Part shown: positions 11,061 through 25,816 of the stretch, one piece after another | How the letters are laid out: each line of letters starts with the position of its first letter | Numbering within the stretch: the stretch's first letter is position 1 | Program-made: the position numbers and the translations under genes | Assembly: GCA_002456975.1 (NCBI GenBank) | Contig: NTKA01000005.1 | Location: 7,062-71,061, forward strand | DNA from: Halieaceae bacterium MED-G27 | GTDB lineage: Bacteria > Pseudomonadota > Gammaproteobacteria > Pseudomonadales > Halieaceae | Length of the DNA: 64,000 nucleotides | Direction: 5' to 3' | The notes under the pieces: model-generated | The model's input: only the letters and a program-made list of their open reading frames with translations | Told to the model about the DNA's origin: nothing | Database searches by the model: none

Positions 11061-12281
11061 GTGTGTCGTGAAAAGCGACAGGTCAGGTCATCAGCGTTAT
11101 CCGCCCCTCTGTTTCGGCGTTATTACCCGGCGAGTTGGTTCTCCAGTTTAGGTGGTTGGATGCTGCGCTTTCTCCTTGGTTGGAGTGCTTGGGCGCTGAC
11201 AGAGTCGTCTTTCTGGGTTGGCATTGTCGGAGCGCTTATGCTGGCACCTGCGATCCTGTTATCCCCTTACTTTGGTGTGCAGTCCGATCGAGTCAATCCG
11301 CGCCATGGACTGATTATTTCGATGGCTGTTCACGCAGTCATTGGTCTGACCGGGGCAGTGACAACGGCGACGGATCTATTTGGGTTAAATACGTTGCTCT
11401 TGTTGGCAACCACCATGGGCGCGGTCACTGCGTTGCACAGCCCCATGCGCTTGGCGCTGGTCCCGCTATTGGTATCGCGCGAAGCGTTGCCAAGTGCGGT
11501 GGGGCTGACCGCCATGTCATTTAACATCGCCCGTATCCTTGGCCCGGCGATTTCAGCCGCCTTACTCGCATCGGTCGGTCTCGTATGGGCCTGGAGTCTT
11601 CCGGTCGCCATGTTTTTTATCTCTGCATTGTTACTCGCTGTGATTCGCGGCGTGGGCACGCGCGAGATTAAAGTGAAGAGTAGTGTCAATGCGGCGTTTC
11701 TTGAGGCTGGTCGCTATGCCTTGGCGCATTCTCAGATCACATTCATATTGATGATCACTGCGACTAACGGGCTGTTGGGGCGTAGCTTTATCGAGTTATT
11801 GCCCGCGATTTCTGGGCGTGTACTCAATGGTGATGCGACTGAATTAGCATGGCTGACTGCGGCGGCGGGCGCTGGTGCGGTAGCAGGCGGGCTAGTACTA
11901 ACGCAACAGCAGGCCAGGGTGAGTTCGCTGTTTCGATTGTTGTTGGGTGCGATGGTTATTGCTGTGTTGCTCCTCGCTTCGCTCAAATGGATGAACACCC
12001 TCACGTCCCTGATGATCTTGGTCGCGATTCTCAGTTCGGTAACAACCATTATGGGGACGAGTTGTCAGACCCTGACCCAACTGATCGTCACTGAGCAATA
12101 TCGTGGTCGGGTGCTCAGTCTCTGGTCGATGACTGCAATGGGTGCTCCCGCACTGGGTGCCGCATGGCAAGGCTGGATGGCTGAGTCTGTCGGCTTCGTC
12201 GATGTCTACTTAACCGCCGCTCTCGTCGGAGTGTTGGCGACGTTGTTTTTTTACCTGCGAGGTCGGCCGGCTTTCACCTGA
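11061..12281 (+). CDS. MFS transporter
   Basis: About 12 TM helices; GVQSDR motif A; FNIARILGPA; YRGRVLS; start uncertain. Confidence 0.85.
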   Translation: MCREKRQVRSSALSAPLFRRYYPASWFSSLGGWMLRFLLGWSAWALTESSFWVGIVGALMLAPAILLSPYFGVQSDRVNPRHGLIISMAVHAVIGLTGAVTTATDLFGLNTLLLLATTMGAVTALHSPMRLALVPLLVSREALPSAVGLTAMSFNIARILGPAISAALLASVGLVWAWSLPVAMFFISALLLAVIRGVGTREIKVKSSVNAAFLEAGRYALAHSQITFILMITATNGLLGRSFIELLPAISGRVLNGDATELAWLTAAAGAGAVAGGLVLTQQQARVSSLFRLLLGAMVIAVLLLASLKWMNTLTSLMILVAILSSVTTIMGTSCQTLTQLIVTEQYRGRVLSLWSMTAMGAPALGAAWQGWMAESVGFVDVYLTAALVGVLATLFFYLRGRPAFT

Positions 12282-18660: not shown

Positions 18661-19122
18661 CTAGGCGTATGGGTTAGGAATGGTGAGTGAATTCAGTATT
18701 GCTATTTCAAGCGCTTCCATTTGCTGCGCCTGGTCGTCTTCGATGTGATCGAAGCCCAAAAGATGCAAAGTGCCATGGACGGTGAGGTGGGCCCAGTGAT
18801 GGCTTACGTCTTTACCTTGTCGCTCGGCCTCAGCGGTGACGACAGGAGCACAAATTAAGATGTCGCCGAGAAGCCCTGTTTTTTGGATCAGGTCAGGATC
18901 TACAGGAAAGGACAATACATTGGTGGCGCCTGTTTTTTGTCGAAACCGGCTGTTGGCCTCGGTCATCTCGTCGAGTTCAACGCAGCGGATCGACAGCTCG
19001 GGAGATATCTCGCTCGGCGTTGGCGCTGGGGTATGGTCGAATACGGCGCTAACCCAGAGCTCGAATGCTTCATCGGCAGGAGTGGCATCGGCATCTCGGT
19101 CGATGTGAACGGCGGCTGTCAT
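18661..19122 (-). CDS. ybeY: rRNA maturation endoribonuclease YbeY
   Basis: HGTLHLLGFDH; TNVLSFP. Confidence 0.96.
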   Translation of the reverse strand: MTAAVHIDRDADATPADEAFELWVSAVFDHTPAPTPSEISPELSIRCVELDEMTEANSRFRQKTGATNVLSFPVDPDLIQKTGLLGDILICAPVVTAEAERQGKDVSHHWAHLTVHGTLHLLGFDHIEDDQAQQMEALEIAILNSLTIPNPYA

Positions 19123-20171
19123 AGCAGAGGCTTCACATTGGATGAGCTTTCGGTTTGCTCCTGGGACTCATAGGCATCGACGACTCGCTGCACCAAGGGG
19201 TGTCGCACCACATCTTTTCGGTCGAAGTTAGTGAATGAAATGCCAGTCACCTCGCCCAAAATATCGCGCGCGTGGACCAAGCCAGAGGGTTGGCCTCGCG
19301 GTAGGTCGATTTGAGTCGTATCCCCAGTGATGACCGCTGTAGAGCCGAAGCCCAGTCGCGTTAAAAACATTTTCATCTGTTCGCGAGTGGTGTTCTGTGC
19401 CTCGTCGAGAATGATGAAAGCATTGTTCAGCGTTCGTCCGCGCATAAAAGCTAACGGAGCAACTTCGATGACATTGCGCTCGATCAATTTGGTCACGCTC
19501 TCCACGCCCAGCATTTCGAACAATGCGTCATACAACGGCCTGAGGTAGGGATCTACCTTCTGCGTTAAATCGCCTGGCAGAAAGCCTAGGCGCTCGCCGG
19601 CTTCAACCGCCGGTCGCACCAGCAGGATGCGTTTTACCTCTTCCTCAAGCAGCGCCTCGACAGCGCAGGCCACCGCGAGATAGGTTTTGCCAGTTCCTGC
19701 GGGACCTACACCAAAATTCAGGTCGTGGCGTCGAATGGCATCCACGTAGCTAATCTGGTTATATCCTCGCGGCTTGATGGTTCCGCGCTTGGTTTTTATA
19801 CCTCTCGCCTGACCGCCCGAGTTCGGTGGTGCCAGCGCTAATAGTTCGAGATCTGCTTGCTGTAATCGTAGGTGCAAACTCTCAACACTCAGACGGAGCC
19901 CCTCAGAAATCTCCCGATACAGCTGTCTGATAAGTGACTCGGCAATCGAGCAGATAGGCTCTGGACCACTCAAGCTGAACTGGTTGCCACGATTGCTAAC
20001 AGCTATCTCTAGTCGTTCGCTGATTAGTTTTAGATGCGTGTTGAGGTGCCCGCAAAGTACGGCAATGTGCTTCGCATCGTCGGGTTCGAGTAAGAAAGAG
20101 TATGAGGCGTAGCCGGACCGACTGTCGGGTTCCGGGGGTATGGGGTCAATGTCCAAGGACTGTTTGGCCAC
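19119..20171 (-). CDS. ybeZ: PhoH-family ATPase (YbeZ)
   Basis: GPAGTGKT, RPAVEAGE, RGRTL, DEAQN. Confidence 0.94.
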   Translation of the reverse strand: MAKQSLDIDPIPPEPDSRSGYASYSFLLEPDDAKHIAVLCGHLNTHLKLISERLEIAVSNRGNQFSLSGPEPICSIAESLIRQLYREISEGLRLSVESLHLRLQQADLELLALAPPNSGGQARGIKTKRGTIKPRGYNQISYVDAIRRHDLNFGVGPAGTGKTYLAVACAVEALLEEEVKRILLVRPAVEAGERLGFLPGDLTQKVDPYLRPLYDALFEMLGVESVTKLIERNVIEVAPLAFMRGRTLNNAFIILDEAQNTTREQMKMFLTRLGFGSTAVITGDTTQIDLPRGQPSGLVHARDILGEVTGISFTNFDRKDVVRHPLVQRVVDAYESQEQTESSSNVKPLL

Positions 20172-20192
20172 TCATGCTGTGTATGAACGCCG

Positions 20193-20220
20193 AAGATACC
20201 GCGCCGCGCGCCGATGTCAA
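20193..20220 (-). promoter_or_regulatory. Sigma70 promoter for the phoH-ybeY-corC-lnt operon
   Basis: TTGACA-16 bp-TATCTT, 21 bp upstream of the GTG start; the -35 contains the TGA stop of the miaB remnant. Confidence 0.7.
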
Positions 20221-20346
20221 CTGTCCAATACGCCCCGTAGCGGCTTTGGTCGTCTTTGTTCACCTCGACCGTGGCTAAGTTTTAGATCAAATCATGCTCA
20301 AGACACGAGAGGTTGGCCTATCGATGGTTGTCGGTCAGCACTGCCA
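20217..20346 (-). pseudogene. Decayed copy of the miaB 3' end
   Basis: Hand alignment to 23001-23131 gives about 100/131 identities, two in-frame stops (TAG, TAA) and a 1-nt deletion. Confidence 0.9.
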
Positions 20347-20597
20347 GAAGCGTCCGTGTGGCTACCTGCGTATCCTGGAGAGTGGAAACCGTTCGGGTGA
20401 TGCGGCGTCGTTTGTCACGCTCACGGAGGGTACACAAGTCGCGGCCGTAGGAGCGCAAATACACCTCCATGTGTGGCCGAGCATGCTGAGTAATGCCCGT
20501 CGTTTTTGCGTTCGTTCGAGAGGGTGTGTTGTGGCATATTGTTAGACCGTGCTAAAAGAAAGAACACTCGATTGACCGCACAATCTAGGGGGTTTGC

Positions 20598-22658
20598 ATG
20601 AGCTTACGTATTATTGCCGTTGTCATCGGCGTATGTATTTGTGGCATTGCCTATGCCGATGATCACGCTTCTGAATTTCTTGACGTCGGCGACTGGCTGG
20701 AAGCCGAGCGGGTCAGCGACGCGCGTATCTCGCCGGACGGCAGCAAGATCGTTTACACGCGTCGATACGTCGATAAGATCAATGATCGATTTGACTCGTC
20801 GTTGTGGATCATGGACAGCGACGGTGAACGTGAACGTTTCCTGATCAAGGGTTCGAATCCGCGCTGGTCGTCAGACGGTACGCGATTGCTGTTCACGGGT
20901 CCAGACAAGAATGGTAAGCCCCAAATATTCGTTCGGTGGATGGATGACGAGGGGGCGGTCTCACAGGTAACCAATGTCACTGTGACGCCGGCGTCGCCGA
21001 CCTGGTCACCCGACGGCGAGCATATTGCATTCGTTGCTATTATCCCGGCCAAGAACAAGTGGAATGTATCCATTCCCTCGCCACCCGAGGGCGCGAAGTG
21101 GACCGAGGGACCTCGTATCCTCGATCGTATTCACTACCGTCAGGATCGGGTTGGTTTTCGCGATCCGGGGTATTCCCATCTGTTCGTTGTGCCGGCGAGT
21201 TCGGGCACGGCCCGCCAGCTGACCTCAGGCGAATGGCACGTTGGTGCACAGTTCGACGGACTGTTCTTTGGGGCAGGTTTAAGCTGGACGCCCGACAGCA
21301 AGCGAATCTTGTTCGATGGACTCGATGATCCAAACAGTGATTTGATGTATCGGCGGTCGCATATCTACGCTATCGATGTCGCTACAGGCGAACGGGAGGT
21401 GCTGACTGACAGCATCGGCTACTGGACCGATCCGGTCGTGTCGCCTGATGGTAGGCGCGTTGTCTATTCCGGTTACCCGAAAGCGAAGGAAACCTACGAA
21501 ATGCCGCATCTCTTCGTCATGGATATCGACGGCGGCAACCCTAGCAACCTGACCGAAGACTTCGACCGGCCGGCGAACGCCGTGATCTGGGACGACAACA
21601 ACCGCCGGATCTATTTCACTGCCCAGGATCGCGGTTACGTCAATGTCTTCAAAAGCGATCTCAACGGAAAAGTGACTCCGGTAACCTCCGGGCAGCAGGT
21701 CGCAACACTGGTATCGGCCGACAAGGCGCGCACTGTTGGTGTCGGTCTTATCAGCAACTTTAGCGAGCCCGGCGACATCTACCGTTTCCCATTGGCTAGG
21801 CCCGGAGAGCCGACCCAGTTGACCGCGGTCAATGCCGATATGCTGGAGGGCAAGACGCTCGGTGAGCAGGAGGAAATCTGGTTCGAGGCGGAAGATGGAA
21901 GCATGGCACATGGCTGGATTGTCAGGCCACCAAATTTCGATCCCGAGAAAAAATACCCGATGATTTTCGAAATTCACGGTGGTCCGTTTGCCATGTACCA
22001 GGGCCGCTTTAATCTGACCTATCAGATCTACGCGGCGAACGGATTCGTCGTTCTCTATACCAATCCGCGTGGCAGCACGGGTTACGGCGAGGCATTTTCA
22101 CAGGCGATCAGCCGCGCGTATCCGAGCGTCGATCATCTCGATCTGATGGCGGGTGTCGACGCGGCACTCGAGACTGGTTATGTGGATGAAAAACGCCTTT
22201 ATGTCGGTGGCTGCAGCGGTGGTGGCGTACTATCCAGCTGGATGATCGGTCATACCGATCGTTTCGCAGCGGCGGCTGTCCGTTGCCCGGTCGTTAACTG
22301 GATGAGCATGATGGGAACCACCGATATTCCCTTTTTCACGCTGTCTTTCTTCGAGAAGCCCTTCTGGGAAGACCCGACCGATTGGTTGAAGCATTCATCG
22401 ATCATGTATGTCGACAAGGTGACCACTCCGACACTGGTCATGACGGGTGAAAAGGATCTGCGGACCCCGATGGCGCAATCAGAAGAGTACTATGCGGCCC
22501 TAAAGGTGCAGGGGGTACCAGCGCAGCTAATGCGCTTTAACGAAGAATATCACGGTACAAGCTCAAAGCCGTCAAACGCGATGCGCACCATGGCTTACAT
22601 GATGGCTTGGTACAACCAGTGGACCGAGGATGGTGAAGTCACTGACTCGGACGAGTAA
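20598..22658 (+). CDS. Secreted S9 family peptidase (beta-propeller plus alpha/beta hydrolase)
   Basis: Signal peptide; PD40-like SPDG repeats; IHGGP, NPRGSTGYG, GCSGGG (Ser), DLRTP (Asp), EYHG (His). Confidence 0.93.
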   Translation: MSLRIIAVVIGVCICGIAYADDHASEFLDVGDWLEAERVSDARISPDGSKIVYTRRYVDKINDRFDSSLWIMDSDGERERFLIKGSNPRWSSDGTRLLFTGPDKNGKPQIFVRWMDDEGAVSQVTNVTVTPASPTWSPDGEHIAFVAIIPAKNKWNVSIPSPPEGAKWTEGPRILDRIHYRQDRVGFRDPGYSHLFVVPASSGTARQLTSGEWHVGAQFDGLFFGAGLSWTPDSKRILFDGLDDPNSDLMYRRSHIYAIDVATGEREVLTDSIGYWTDPVVSPDGRRVVYSGYPKAKETYEMPHLFVMDIDGGNPSNLTEDFDRPANAVIWDDNNRRIYFTAQDRGYVNVFKSDLNGKVTPVTSGQQVATLVSADKARTVGVGLISNFSEPGDIYRFPLARPGEPTQLTAVNADMLEGKTLGEQEEIWFEAEDGSMAHGWIVRPPNFDPEKKYPMIFEIHGGPFAMYQGRFNLTYQIYAANGFVVLYTNPRGSTGYGEAFSQAISRAYPSVDHLDLMAGVDAALETGYVDEKRLYVGGCSGGGVLSSWMIGHTDRFAAAAVRCPVVNWMSMMGTTDIPFFTLSFFEKPFWEDPTDWLKHSSIMYVDKVTTPTLVMTGEKDLRTPMAQSEEYYAALKVQGVPAQLMRFNEEYHGTSSKPSNAMRTMAYMMAWYNQWTEDGEVTDSDE

Positions 22659-22670
22659 GTATGCTGCAGT

Positions 22671-22698
22671 CGTCCGGAGAGCCTTCGTTTTCCGGGCG
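22671..22698 (+). terminator. Probable terminator of the S9 peptidase
   Basis: CGTCCGGAGA...TTTCCGGGCG stem with G-U pairs, followed by GTTTGTT. Confidence 0.55.
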
Positions 22699-22739
22699 GT
22701 TTGTTACGATTCCGCCGTTGGTAACCGTACGCCTGTTTC

Positions 22740-22947
22740 GGTAGCCACGAGATGATCCTGCATCAGCTATGAGCGAAGGTTTGCGTCGTTCGTGTACACG
22801 CCGAGCCGGTCGTGATTGGGGCGTTAGTGCATTCGTTGCCGACTTTTCTAGGTCGCTGAATACGACTACGAGAACGGTGTGTGCGGCCCATGCGATACGG
22901 GTTCAGTGCTGGAGTCGGTGTTCCCAGTAGTACGCCAGATCGGCCGC
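22740..22947 (-). pseudogene. Probable heavily decayed copy of the phoH 5' end
   Basis: Collinear blocks shared with 19982-20124 (GGT.GCCACGA, CAGCTAT, GTCGTTCG, CGGGTTC, GCC.GA.CG.C.G), separated by insertions. Confidence 0.55.
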
Positions 22948-23000
22948 GAACACGCAGTAAGATAGTCAGGCAGTTGAGAGCTACCGCGCTCGCGCCGATA

Positions 23001-24341
23001 TTAAAGGTCTAATGCGCCCCGTAGCGAGTTCGGTAGTGCTTCGATCACCTCTACCGTGGCGAAGTTGCCGATTAAATCTTGATCAAGACATGAGAAGTTG
23101 ACCACTCGATTGTTCTCGGTCCGTCCCGCCAATTGCCCTGGGTCTTTTTTTGATACGCCCGTTACTAGGATGCGTTGTTTCGAGCCCACCATTCGTCGGC
23201 TGATGGCCTGCGCTTGTTGACTGATGCGCGATTGCAAGATGTGTAATCGCGTCTTTTTCACGTCATCTGGCGTGTTGTCCGCAAGCTCGGCGGCCGGTGT
23301 GCCAGGCCGGGCGCTGTAGATAAAGCTGAACGACGTATCGAAACCAACGTCATCAATGAGCTTCATCGTGGCGGCAAAGTCCGGTTCGGTCTCTCCGGGA
23401 AAGCCGATGATGAAGTCCGATGACAGTGAAATGTCGGGTCTGATGGCACGCAGCGCACGAATCTTGGACTTGTACTCGGTCGCTGTGTGGCCGCGTTTCA
23501 TTGCCATCAGTATGCGATCAGACCCGCTTTGTACCGGAAGGTGAAGATGGTTAACCAGTGCTGGCACTTCGCGGTAGCACTCGATGAGGCTGTCGCTGAA
23601 CTCTACAGGGTGAGACGTGGTGTAACGAATTCGCTCGATGCCGGGAACCATGTTGACCAGCGTAATGAGTTCAGCAAAGTCGACGATCTCGCCCAAATGG
23701 TTATGGCCGCGATAGGCGTTCACATTTTGCCCAAGCAGGTTTATCTCTTTTACACCACTGTCGGCGAGGTGGGCGACTTCGGCAATGACATCGTCAACCG
23801 GGCGGGAAACCTCCTCACCACGGGTGTAGGGAACGACACAAAACGTGCAGTACTTGCTGCATCCTTCCATGACCGACACAAAGGCAGTGGCGCTGTCGGT
23901 GCTTGGTTGCGGCAGCCGGTCAAATTTCTCAATCTCGGGAAACGAAATATCGACAACAGCGCTGCTACTCGATTCCCGGTCGTCGAGCATCTCAGGCAGT
24001 CTATGAAGTGTTTGGGGGCCAAAAATGAGATCGACGTAGGGTGCTCGCTCGCTGATTGCCTCACCCTCTTGGCTGGCAACGCAGCCGCCGACCCCAATGA
24101 CAACATCGGGTCGCTTCGCTTTGATTGCTTTCCATCGCCCCAGCTGATGAAAAACCTTTTCCTGCGCCTTCTCTCGAATAGAGCAGGTGTTCAGCAATAG
24201 GACATCAGCCTCCTCAGCATCGTGAGTCTGCTCCATGCCATGGCTCTCTTTGAGTAAGTCACCCATTCGAGCCGAGTCGTATTCATTCATCTGACAACCG
24301 TGGGTCTGAATGAAAACCTTTGATCGCTTGGCGTCTGTCAA
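23001..24341 (-). CDS. miaB: tRNA (i6A37) methylthiotransferase
   Basis: GCQMNEYDS; radical [11 protein letters not shown]; C-terminal TRAM domain. Confidence 0.97.
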
Positions 24342-24467
24342 AGTTGCTGATCTCTGATAACGGAAAGCCGCGAAGTATACCGCTTATAGTGACAAACTCA
24401 GCAACACTAATGCTCGTTTTGGTTAAAAGTGCTAGCATCGCGACCCCATTTGAACGACAGCTACACT

Positions 24468-24809
24468 ATGGCGGCGCAACCCGTTTACAAAATCATTTTT
24501 CACAATGGCAAGCAGGTCTTTGAGATCTTTGCTAAGCAGATCTACCAGAGTGATATGTGGGGGTTTATAGAAATCGAAGAAATGCTGTTCGGTGAGCGAT
24601 CGCAAATTGTTGTCGACCCGAGCGAGGAGAAACTGAAGTCAGAGTTTTCCGGCGTCAAACGCAGCTACATCCCGATGCAGTCGATCATCCGCATCGATGA
24701 AGTTGAGAAGCAAGGCGCGGCCAAGATCAGCGAGGGCGGCGAGGGTAGCAAGATCGCAACCTTCCCAATGGCACCGGGGGGTGCCAGTTCGGTCGGTTCA
24801 GATGATTAG
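24468..24809 (+). CDS. DUF1820 family protein
   Basis: YKIIFHN...VVDPSEEKLKSEF..VKRSYIPM..IRIDEV; divergent from miaB. Confidence 0.85.
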   Translation: MAAQPVYKIIFHNGKQVFEIFAKQIYQSDMWGFIEIEEMLFGERSQIVVDPSEEKLKSEFSGVKRSYIPMQSIIRIDEVEKQGAAKISEGGEGSKIATFPMAPGGASSVGSDD

Positions 24810-24823
24810 CAACCAACCAATGA

Positions 24824-25816
24824 TTAACCCAGTTTGACGGCGCTCAGAATTGCGCGTTGCGGCGCCGAGTGACCTTCGATTGTTTTTTGTGAGTCGTCCG
24901 GATCAAGGAAGTCTGACAGTGAGTGAAAGGTCATCCACGACGTGGATCGCTGCTCGGCAGTGCTGGTTTGGTTGATATCGACTAGTTCAACATCGACAAA
25001 TCCGAGTTTTTTGAGCCAACTTCCCAGCGCCGGCGCGCTTGGCAGAAACCAAACATTCCCCATTCGCGCATAGCGATCTGGCGGCATAAAAACGGTCTGA
25101 GCGTCACCCTCAACCACCAGTGTTTCCAGAATGAGTTGACCACCCGGGGCGAGACATTCTCGTAGCCGAGACAAATGATCGATCGGCGATTTCCGGTGAT
25201 AGAGCACGCCCATCGAAAATACGGTATCAAAGGCCTCTAGCTTTGCTGGTAGATGCTCTAGCGCGAGTGGCAAAACGTGAATGTTTGGGCACTGCAGGTA
25301 ATGTTGCAGGGCCTTGAATTGAAGGACAAACAATGGCGTGGGGTCGATGCCAATCACTTCATCGGCGCCCTGACCCAGCATGCGCCAACAGTGGTAGCCA
25401 TTCCCACAGCCGACGTCGAGTACGCGTTTTCCGGCCAGTGGACGAAGCGCGGGCTGCAGGCGATCCCATTTGAAGTCAGATCGCCACTCGGTATCGATAG
25501 TCACGTCGAACAAAGAGAAGGGACCTTTTCGCCATGGGTGCAAGCCTCGCAATGCGCGCTCGAGTTCGCTGCTTGACGCTTGGCTAATATCACCGGAGCA
25601 ACCAACTGCTGATTGATTCAGTAATGTTGCGTCGGCGTTTAGCTGGGGAAGTGCTGCCAGCGCATCGCGCCAACGTGGCAGATCGCCGTAGCGTTTTTCG
25701 GACATTCTGTGCGCAATATCGCCCGGCAGTTGCTCAAGCCAGTTGACCAGCGACGGTAACTCCCAGCGTTGGTTGAACTGTTCTAAGTCGAAGGCTAGTT
25801 CGGTCGGCTGATCCAC
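24824..25816 (-). CDS. cmoB: tRNA U34 carboxymethyltransferase
   Basis: PWRKGPF, IDTEWRSDFKW, DVGCGNGYH, MGVLYHR. Confidence 0.96.
   Translation of the reverse strand: MDQPTELAFDLEQFNQRWELPSLVNWLEQLPGDIAHRMSEKRYGDLPRWRDALAALPQLNADATLLNQSAVGCSGDISQASSSELERALRGLHPWRKGPFSLFDVTIDTEWRSDFKWDRLQPALRPLAGKRVLDVGCGNGYHCWRMLGQGADEVIGIDPTPLFVLQFKALQHYLQCPNIHVLPLALEHLPAKLEAFDTVFSMGVLYHRKSPIDHLSRLRECLAPGGQLILETLVVEGDAQTVFMPPDRYARMGNVWFLPSAPALGSWLKKLGFVDVELVDINQTSTAEQRSTSWMTFHSLSDFLDPDDSQKTIEGHSAPQRAILSAVKLG

Follow-up and report, generated by a model that had tools for sequence, protein, structure and literature searches.

We analyzed a 64,000-nt stretch of Halieaceae bacterium MED-G27 (contig NTKA01000005.1, positions 7,062 to 71,061; hereafter the window, whose coordinates we use throughout), part of a 2.02-Mb metagenome-assembled genome (MAG) of 68 contigs and 75% completeness, here called G000. 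At one point in the window a gene for an S9-family serine peptidase separates miaB from phoH, and the same arrangement occurs in one independent metagenome contig, Ga0213858_10000744 (L048). We think it probable that a foreign peptidase module was inserted here by an integrase-independent, duplicative event, and that the two resulting copies of the miaB tail then divided a coding role and a promoter role between them.

The Peptidase Is Flanked by a Duplicated miaB Tail

Repeat finding returned two blocks that lie one base out of register (20254-20346/23039-23131 at 77% identity and 20207-20253/22991-23037 at 79%), which local alignment merges into a single match of 20194-20336 to 22979-23121 with 77-80% identity and one indel. 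The alignment score of 129 compares with a mean of 22.2, a standard deviation of 2.5, and a maximum of 32 in 300 dinucleotide shuffles (z=43), and blastn of the two copies gives 77% identity over 154 nt (E=3e-31). The repeat comprises the final 40 codons of miaB and 22 nt beyond the stop codon; the copy on the phoH side is decayed, with two in-frame stops and a 1-nt deletion that shifts the frame. An original prediction, made from the letters of the window alone, had placed the repeat at 20197-20346/22982-23131 and had described the same two stops and frameshift, and these points stand. Its suggestion of fainter similarity running to about 20420 fails, the score being reached by 237/500 shuffles at the DNA level and 100/500 at the protein level, and we dropped this extension of the repeat.

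In a tree of miaB tails, the live tail of G000, its decayed remnant, and the live tail of L048 form one clade (support 99/97), apart from the clade of the presumed donors and from every sampled relative, and the copies have derived bases in common. Because all tail copies fall into this lineage-specific clade, the duplicated DNA is best read as the recipient's own: sequence comparison indicates a duplication of target DNA, at least 143 nt long in G000, and not an imported 3' end. The original prediction had offered, as an option, that imported sequence replaced the 3' end of miaB; the tree does not bear this out. The remnant has a branch of 0.21, against 0.09-0.10 for the other copies. As a test of an element-borne repeat copy, the tree leaves the three copies as a trichotomy within their clade, over 143 nt only.

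L048 is collinear with window positions 20353-24988 at 85.6% identity, a span that takes in a filler segment X, the peptidase gene, a second filler segment Y (Table 1), miaB, and sequence beyond it. Its miaB is sister to that of G000 (support 100; nonsynonymous divergence, dN, 0.015; synonymous divergence, dS, 0.67), and the two peptidase genes differ by a dS of 0.49. Since the non-coding parts are 63-72% identical between G000 and L048 and the coding parts ~89%, X and Y drift neutrally, and the insertion is older than the split of the two lineages.

The end of L048 that lies upstream of X (L048:1-115) repeats the part of miaB that corresponds to 23131-23243. This copy matches the contig's own miaB at 92% identity; most of the differences, among them four nonsynonymous changes, fall in its 5' half. 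These data suggest an original duplication of at least 265 nt that began near codon 366 and reached 22 nt beyond the miaB stop. In the repeat behind the live miaB of L048, the duplication ends within the -10 box of a putative phoH promoter described below, and the original event probably covered ~265-287 nt, with one limit near miaB codon 366 and the other, past the stop, halfway into that box. The 3' 60 nt of the contig-end copy are almost identical to L048's live miaB; this near-identity suggests either gene conversion between the repeats or an assembly artefact at the contig end.

The miaB-phoH Junction Is Unoccupied in Relatives

We surveyed the junction in 96 genomes of the genus and a sample of 140 genomes of the family, of which ~85 and ~135, respectively, are informative. 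Wherever both genes share a contig, miaB and phoH are adjacent, with gaps smaller than ~400 nt (38-90 nt in 28/28 fully measured genus loci), and an S9 peptidase lies between them only in G000 and L048. Apparent separations in G060, G164, G179, G016, G233, and G177 are contig breaks; the contig ends of G164 and G179 overlap by 109 nt at 100% identity. The genes are rearranged in G120, from another genus, with no integrase within 3.6 kb. There, DUF1820 abuts phoH directly (L115:2921-3268), and the sole miaB-like gene (57% identity) is on another contig, suggesting that miaB was lost from, or replaced at, the DUF1820-phoH locus.

No informative relative, in the genus or the family, carries an island at this junction. 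The original prediction had taken miaB to be normally contiguous with the phoH run, as all informative genomes confirm, and had named an integrase-bearing island at miaB in relatives as a sign of an ordinary island relic; none was found among the ~220. Because the junction is closed in relatives, the peptidase insertion is the derived state, and this position of the peptidase is derived whichever way the module was transferred. The invariant junction, together with tails of the recipient lineage, upholds the view that a gene was captured with a target duplication far longer than that of a transposon.

The Peptidase Module Was Acquired Horizontally

Of the 95 other genomes of the genus, 8 encode an orthologue of the peptidase at 88-94% protein identity; outside these eight the best match is 64% (G078), with others at about 40% or less. 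Further homologues stand at 79% and 70-72%, and the homologue cluster holds 557 sequences. The carriers (eight species of the genus and several metagenome contigs) share the gene order TonB-dependent receptor, peptidase, SnoaL-like gene, alpha/beta-hydrolase. Their DNA homology to the window is limited to 20494/6-22702, at 88-90% identity, which defines a module of ~2.2 kb that consists of the coding sequence, ~100 nt upstream, and a 44-nt downstream hairpin.

In the neighboring core genes, G000 shares only 67-73% DNA identity with G001, a member of the carrier clade. By the Nei-Gojobori method, the peptidase genes of these two genomes have a dS of 0.43 and a dN of 0.031, whereas the core-gene dS is 2.1 for ybeY and 3.7 for corC and is not computable, being saturated, for miaB and phoH. 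The miaB tree pairs G000 with L048 (support 100) and does not make them sister to the carriers, to which two groups lacking the peptidase stand closer; the tree path from G000 to the carrier clade is 0.81 substitutions per site for miaB, against 0.12 for the peptidase. The contrast between a peptidase dS of 0.43 and saturated core genes, the conflicting trees, and the patchy distribution show that the module was gained by horizontal transfer. By these comparisons, the module came from the sister clade within this Halieaceae genus or from a source that the sister clade also drew on.

In G000, the counterpart of the carrier locus (contig C53:3595-7800, corresponding to L043:2700-13800 of G001) has neither the receptor gene nor the peptidase, and it is rearranged, with the SnoaL-like gene on the opposite side of a GH17-like gene.

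The Two Copies May Have Divided Overlapping Functions

The decayed miaB copy contains a putative sigma70-like phoH promoter (TTGACA-16-TATCTT), whose -35 box overlaps the TGA stop of the remnant. In all 28 aligned relatives from the genus, TTGAC(A/T) occurs at or just past the miaB stop, with the TGA inside the box in the nearer ones, and a conserved GTATC(T/G)T follows 16-17 nt after it. Behind the live miaB the boxes are degenerate in G000 (TTTAAT...TAGCTC); L048 still has TTGACA there.

Since the -35 box overlaps the miaB stop, a clean insertion at this junction would harm the function of miaB or of phoH. The duplication would have separated two overlapping functions, the phoH promoter and the miaB C-terminus with its TRAM domain. 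The miaB-side copy would have kept its reading frame and lost the promoter boxes, and the phoH-side copy would have lost the frame and kept TTGACA-16-TATCTT, so that the phoH-ybeY-corC-lnt run may retain its promoter. An inner portion of the remnant, ~113 nt or more, would have been deleted later in G000.

Search for an Insertion Mechanism

No integrase or transposase domain was found in 13.8-27.9 kb or elsewhere on the window's contig, and the small open reading frames of X and Y have no Pfam match, in line with the original prediction of no mobility gene between the repeats. The whole 75%-complete genome has two matches to the tyrosine-recombinase family (PF00589), neither on this contig. 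The insert ends have no terminal inverted repeats, and no short target duplication was found. Nor are there marks of an integron, in that 13.8-27.9 kb holds no integrase, the module brings along ~100 nt of upstream sequence of its own, and inspection by eye, without an attC model run, found no GTTRRRY core at the module ends.

Filler X has no match in its own genome, the 96 genus genomes, the donor-clade loci, plasmids, phages, Rfam, or Pfam, and filler Y has no origin in its own genome, the genus genomes, or the donor-clade loci out to ~8-10 kb. The Rfam search returned no match at E<=1, and plasmid and phage collections gave none. In L048, a profile search shows that the first ~46 nt of Y still match donor sequence. 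Candidate identities for the fillers were rejected: X as a remnant of the receptor gene (the C-terminus of the TonB-dependent receptor) and Y as a SnoaL remnant gave no significant match, and for Y as a phoH 5' remnant shuffles reached the score in 154/500 and 492/500 cases (DNA) and in 393/400 and 301/400 (protein).

Insertion would have proceeded without dependence on an integrase or transposase, by one of two routes. Foreign DNA may have been captured at a staggered or unequal break, where fill-in or sister-strand joining would duplicate the target; or a circularized hybrid fragment, made up of a native miaB tail and the foreign module, may have integrated by single crossover. The two are not separable, because both leave the same scar. 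The circle route, already named in the original prediction, fits the topology exactly and would need an extra illegitimate joining step. G000 encodes ComEC and DprA, which permits DNA uptake and does not show it.

Several points weigh against an integrase-independent duplicative insertion as we describe it. Its molecular route was not observed, and X (157 nt) and most of Y matched nothing searched, so that microhomologies at the junctions are unreadable and a larger, since deleted element is possible. The figure of at least 265 nt derives from the final 115 nt of a single metagenome contig, L048, and the left junction, from phoH through the remnant to X, is seen in this MAG contig only. The peptidase tree is a polytomy of G000, L048, and the carrier clade and does not give the direction of transfer. 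Ku was not found in G000, a genome 75% complete. Finally, illegitimate integration in natural transformation reportedly tends to delete or replace recipient DNA (de Vries & Wackernagel 2002; Hulter & Wackernagel 2008), and duplications of 143-287 nt are not known as its usual outcome.

Alternative Explanations

The strongest competing account, which we nevertheless consider unlikely, is that the locus is the relic of a site-specific element of the e14/icd type, whose attP site mimicked the miaB tail. Integration would have produced a complete miaB and a displaced native tail, and subsequent deletion of the integrase and the rest of the element would have spared only the cargo peptidase with X and Y. 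The topology of a complete gene, an insert, and a 5'-truncated tail is typical of such elements, and the flanking direct repeats (143 nt, z=43) are present as expected, though they are not specific to them. Islands that rebuild a gene end are documented at dusA (PMC4482086). The fillers are unexplained DNA that could be element remains, and the small genomes of the genus would favor deletion. Against these points, neither the insert nor the contig holds a recombinase; the junction is never occupied by another insert in the ~85 genus and ~135 family genomes; the miaB tails on both sides belong to the recipient lineage; and what was carried in is a sister clade's chromosomal module, native flanks included. 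In a literature search for miaB with attB and an integrase, no publication named miaB as an attachment site, the only target mentioned being rimO, a MiaB-like gene.

Less probable again is that the module is a discrete, integrase-less mobile cassette, moved in trans or by some other route, that arrived by separate insertions, behind the receptor gene in the G001 clade and, in G000 and L048, between miaB and phoH. In G076 (L116:3640-3800), the receptor terminator is followed directly by the SnoaL-like gene; G001 (L043:9830-12260) is 2.3 kb longer at this site, the extra sequence being L043 9897-12213, and the left end of homology with G000 and L048 (~L043 9887) falls within ~10-40 nt of this indel boundary. 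G012 (L117:880-1520) has a ~600-nt spacer with an unrelated small open reading frame at the same site. If the cassette account were true, at least two unrelated sites in the genus would be occupied, with G076 preserving the receptor-gene site in its empty form, and at miaB-phoH the cassette's route would give target duplications of hundreds of bases. However, the G001 module is not bounded by terminal inverted repeats (the score is reached in 62/500 shuffles), only a borderline 12-nt direct repeat occurs around it (18/500 shuffles), and the right ends differ (12105-12151 versus about 12195-12213). By eye, G076 matches G001 for ~30 nt beyond the blastn report, which would place sequence of the G001 context within the G000 copy, in keeping with a piece of donor chromosome. 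The indel is explained just as well if G076 lost the module through recombination with an empty allele, and breakpoints near the terminator hairpin combined with such a loss could be the simpler account of it. As a separate observation, the unrelated spacer in G012 suggests that this position behind the receptor gene is locally prone to gene turnover.

Vertical inheritance with relocation inside the genome is rejected by the dS contrast (0.43 versus saturation) and the tree conflict, and an assembly chimera, for which one may cite the 68-contig, 75%-complete MAG, is argued against by the same X-peptidase-Y-miaB order in the independently assembled L048 and could not create a decayed miaB tail whose conserved promoter site is correctly spaced from phoH; we give either of these very little credence.

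Features of the Locus

The gene order by Pfam is leuS, lnt, corC, ybeY, and phoH, all on the minus strand, followed by the S9 peptidase on the plus strand and miaB on the minus strand, which agrees with the single opposite-strand peptidase of the original prediction. Table 1 lists the features of the insertion and its borders.

Table 1. Features of the miaB-phoH insertion locus, in window coordinates
Feature	Position	Strand	Evidence or remarks
phoH (ybeZ), heads the phoH-ybeY-corC-lnt run	19119..20171	-	PF02562 PhoH, E=4.8e-96
Putative phoH promoter, sigma70-like, TTGACA-16-TATCTT, inside the dead miaB copy	20193..20220	-	Best promoter-like site in 20000-23200, 10/12 matches
Decayed miaB-tail copy (40 codons and 22-nt spacer)	20194..20336	-	Alignment, blastn, tail tree
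Filler X, 157 nt	20337..20493		Neutral drift, 66.5% identity to L048
Upstream non-coding part of the acquired module (presumed peptidase promoter and leader)	20494..20597	+	Collinear with donor-clade upstream sequence; profile match E=1.1e-10
S9-family serine peptidase, 686 aa	20598..22658	+	PF00326 E=4.5e-48, PD40, DPPIV_N
Downstream hairpin of the module, terminator-like, 44 nt	22659..22702	+	Common to the donor clade
Filler Y, 276 nt	22703..22978		Neutral drift, 62.8% identity to L048 with indels
Live repeat copy (22-nt former spacer and final 40 miaB codons)	22979..23121	-	Promoter motifs degenerate (TTTAAT...TAGCTC)
miaB, intact	23001..24341	-	UPF0004, radical SAM, and TRAM

The peptidase matches PF00326 with 164 bits (curated cut-off 22.6), and its PD40 and DPPIV_N matches also exceed their cut-offs. 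It combines a beta-propeller with a catalytic domain that contains the nucleophile-serine motif GxSxGG (GCSGGG, residues 538-543), and its N terminus is hydrophobic and, by eye, signal-peptide-like. A dN/dS of ~0.07 against both G001 and L048 indicates that it remained under purifying selection after insertion, and it probably contributes to the periplasmic or secreted scavenging of peptides. The original prediction had also called the peptidase gene GC-richer than its neighbors; the excess is marginal (GC 55.6% versus 50.8-54.8%; GC at third codon positions, 0.651 versus 0.547-0.649) and was too weak to use as a mark of foreign origin.

At the borders of the locus, the apparent start of phoH is a GTG at 20171; the ATG that aligns with the start in relatives lies two bases upstream and out of frame (window 20171-20176), and meets a stop after nine codons. 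On the upstream side of miaB, and divergent from it, is a conserved DUF1820 gene (24429-24809, plus strand); this stretch shares 89.6% identity with L048.

Discussion

This case is a variant of a known event, horizontal gene capture with target duplication, and not a new molecular system. It is distinguished by a long duplication of native DNA, by the lack of mobility genes, and by the probable split of coding and promoter roles between the copies.

The closest parallels in topology come from integrative elements, such as e14, which leaves a duplicated gene end in icd. In e14 and phage 21 in Escherichia coli icd and in the islands at dusA (PMC4482086), as here, a gene-end direct repeat flanks the insert, one copy completes the gene and the other is truncated, and the housekeeping gene stays functional. 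In e14/icd-type elements, however, the repeat is the attachment site, one copy of it is borne by the element, and a tyrosine integrase lies at the edge; at miaB-phoH there is no integrase, the site is not recurrent in the ~220 relatives, the two copies have the recipient's ancestry, and a single chromosomal gene makes up the cargo. Single-crossover insertion of the Campbell type, the laboratory outcome familiar from suicide vectors, gives an identical topology, with a duplication as long as the cloned homology, but it requires that a native miaB tail and foreign DNA already be linked in a preformed circle, and neither such a molecule nor a vector backbone is seen here. Transposons likewise leave direct repeats of target DNA around an insert, yet these measure 2-14 bp and come with terminal inverted repeats and a transposase, none of which is present here, where the repeat is at least 143 nt long.

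Homology-facilitated and double illegitimate recombination in the natural transformation of Acinetobacter baylyi (de Vries & Wackernagel 2002; Hulter & Wackernagel 2008) is cited in PMC8116780. As at miaB-phoH, these processes bring in foreign chromosomal DNA without an integrase, as inserts of gene size. They are said mostly to delete or replace recipient DNA at microhomologies of 3-10 bp, and a target duplication of 143-287 nt is not known as their usual product; at miaB-phoH, microhomologies are unreadable.

Single-gene acquisition is poorly documented in small-genome marine Halieaceae because they carry few mobile elements. The peptidase represents a phylogenetically bracketed gain of one working gene: ~220 relatives show the junction empty, two lineages show it occupied, eight species have the gene in a donor-type context, and no recombinase is visible. 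Its scar is informative in that the duplication would have let each copy retain one of two overlapping functions. The locus offers a natural target for testing integrase-independent duplicative integration, and it would show that overlapping coding and regulatory signals are separable by duplication.

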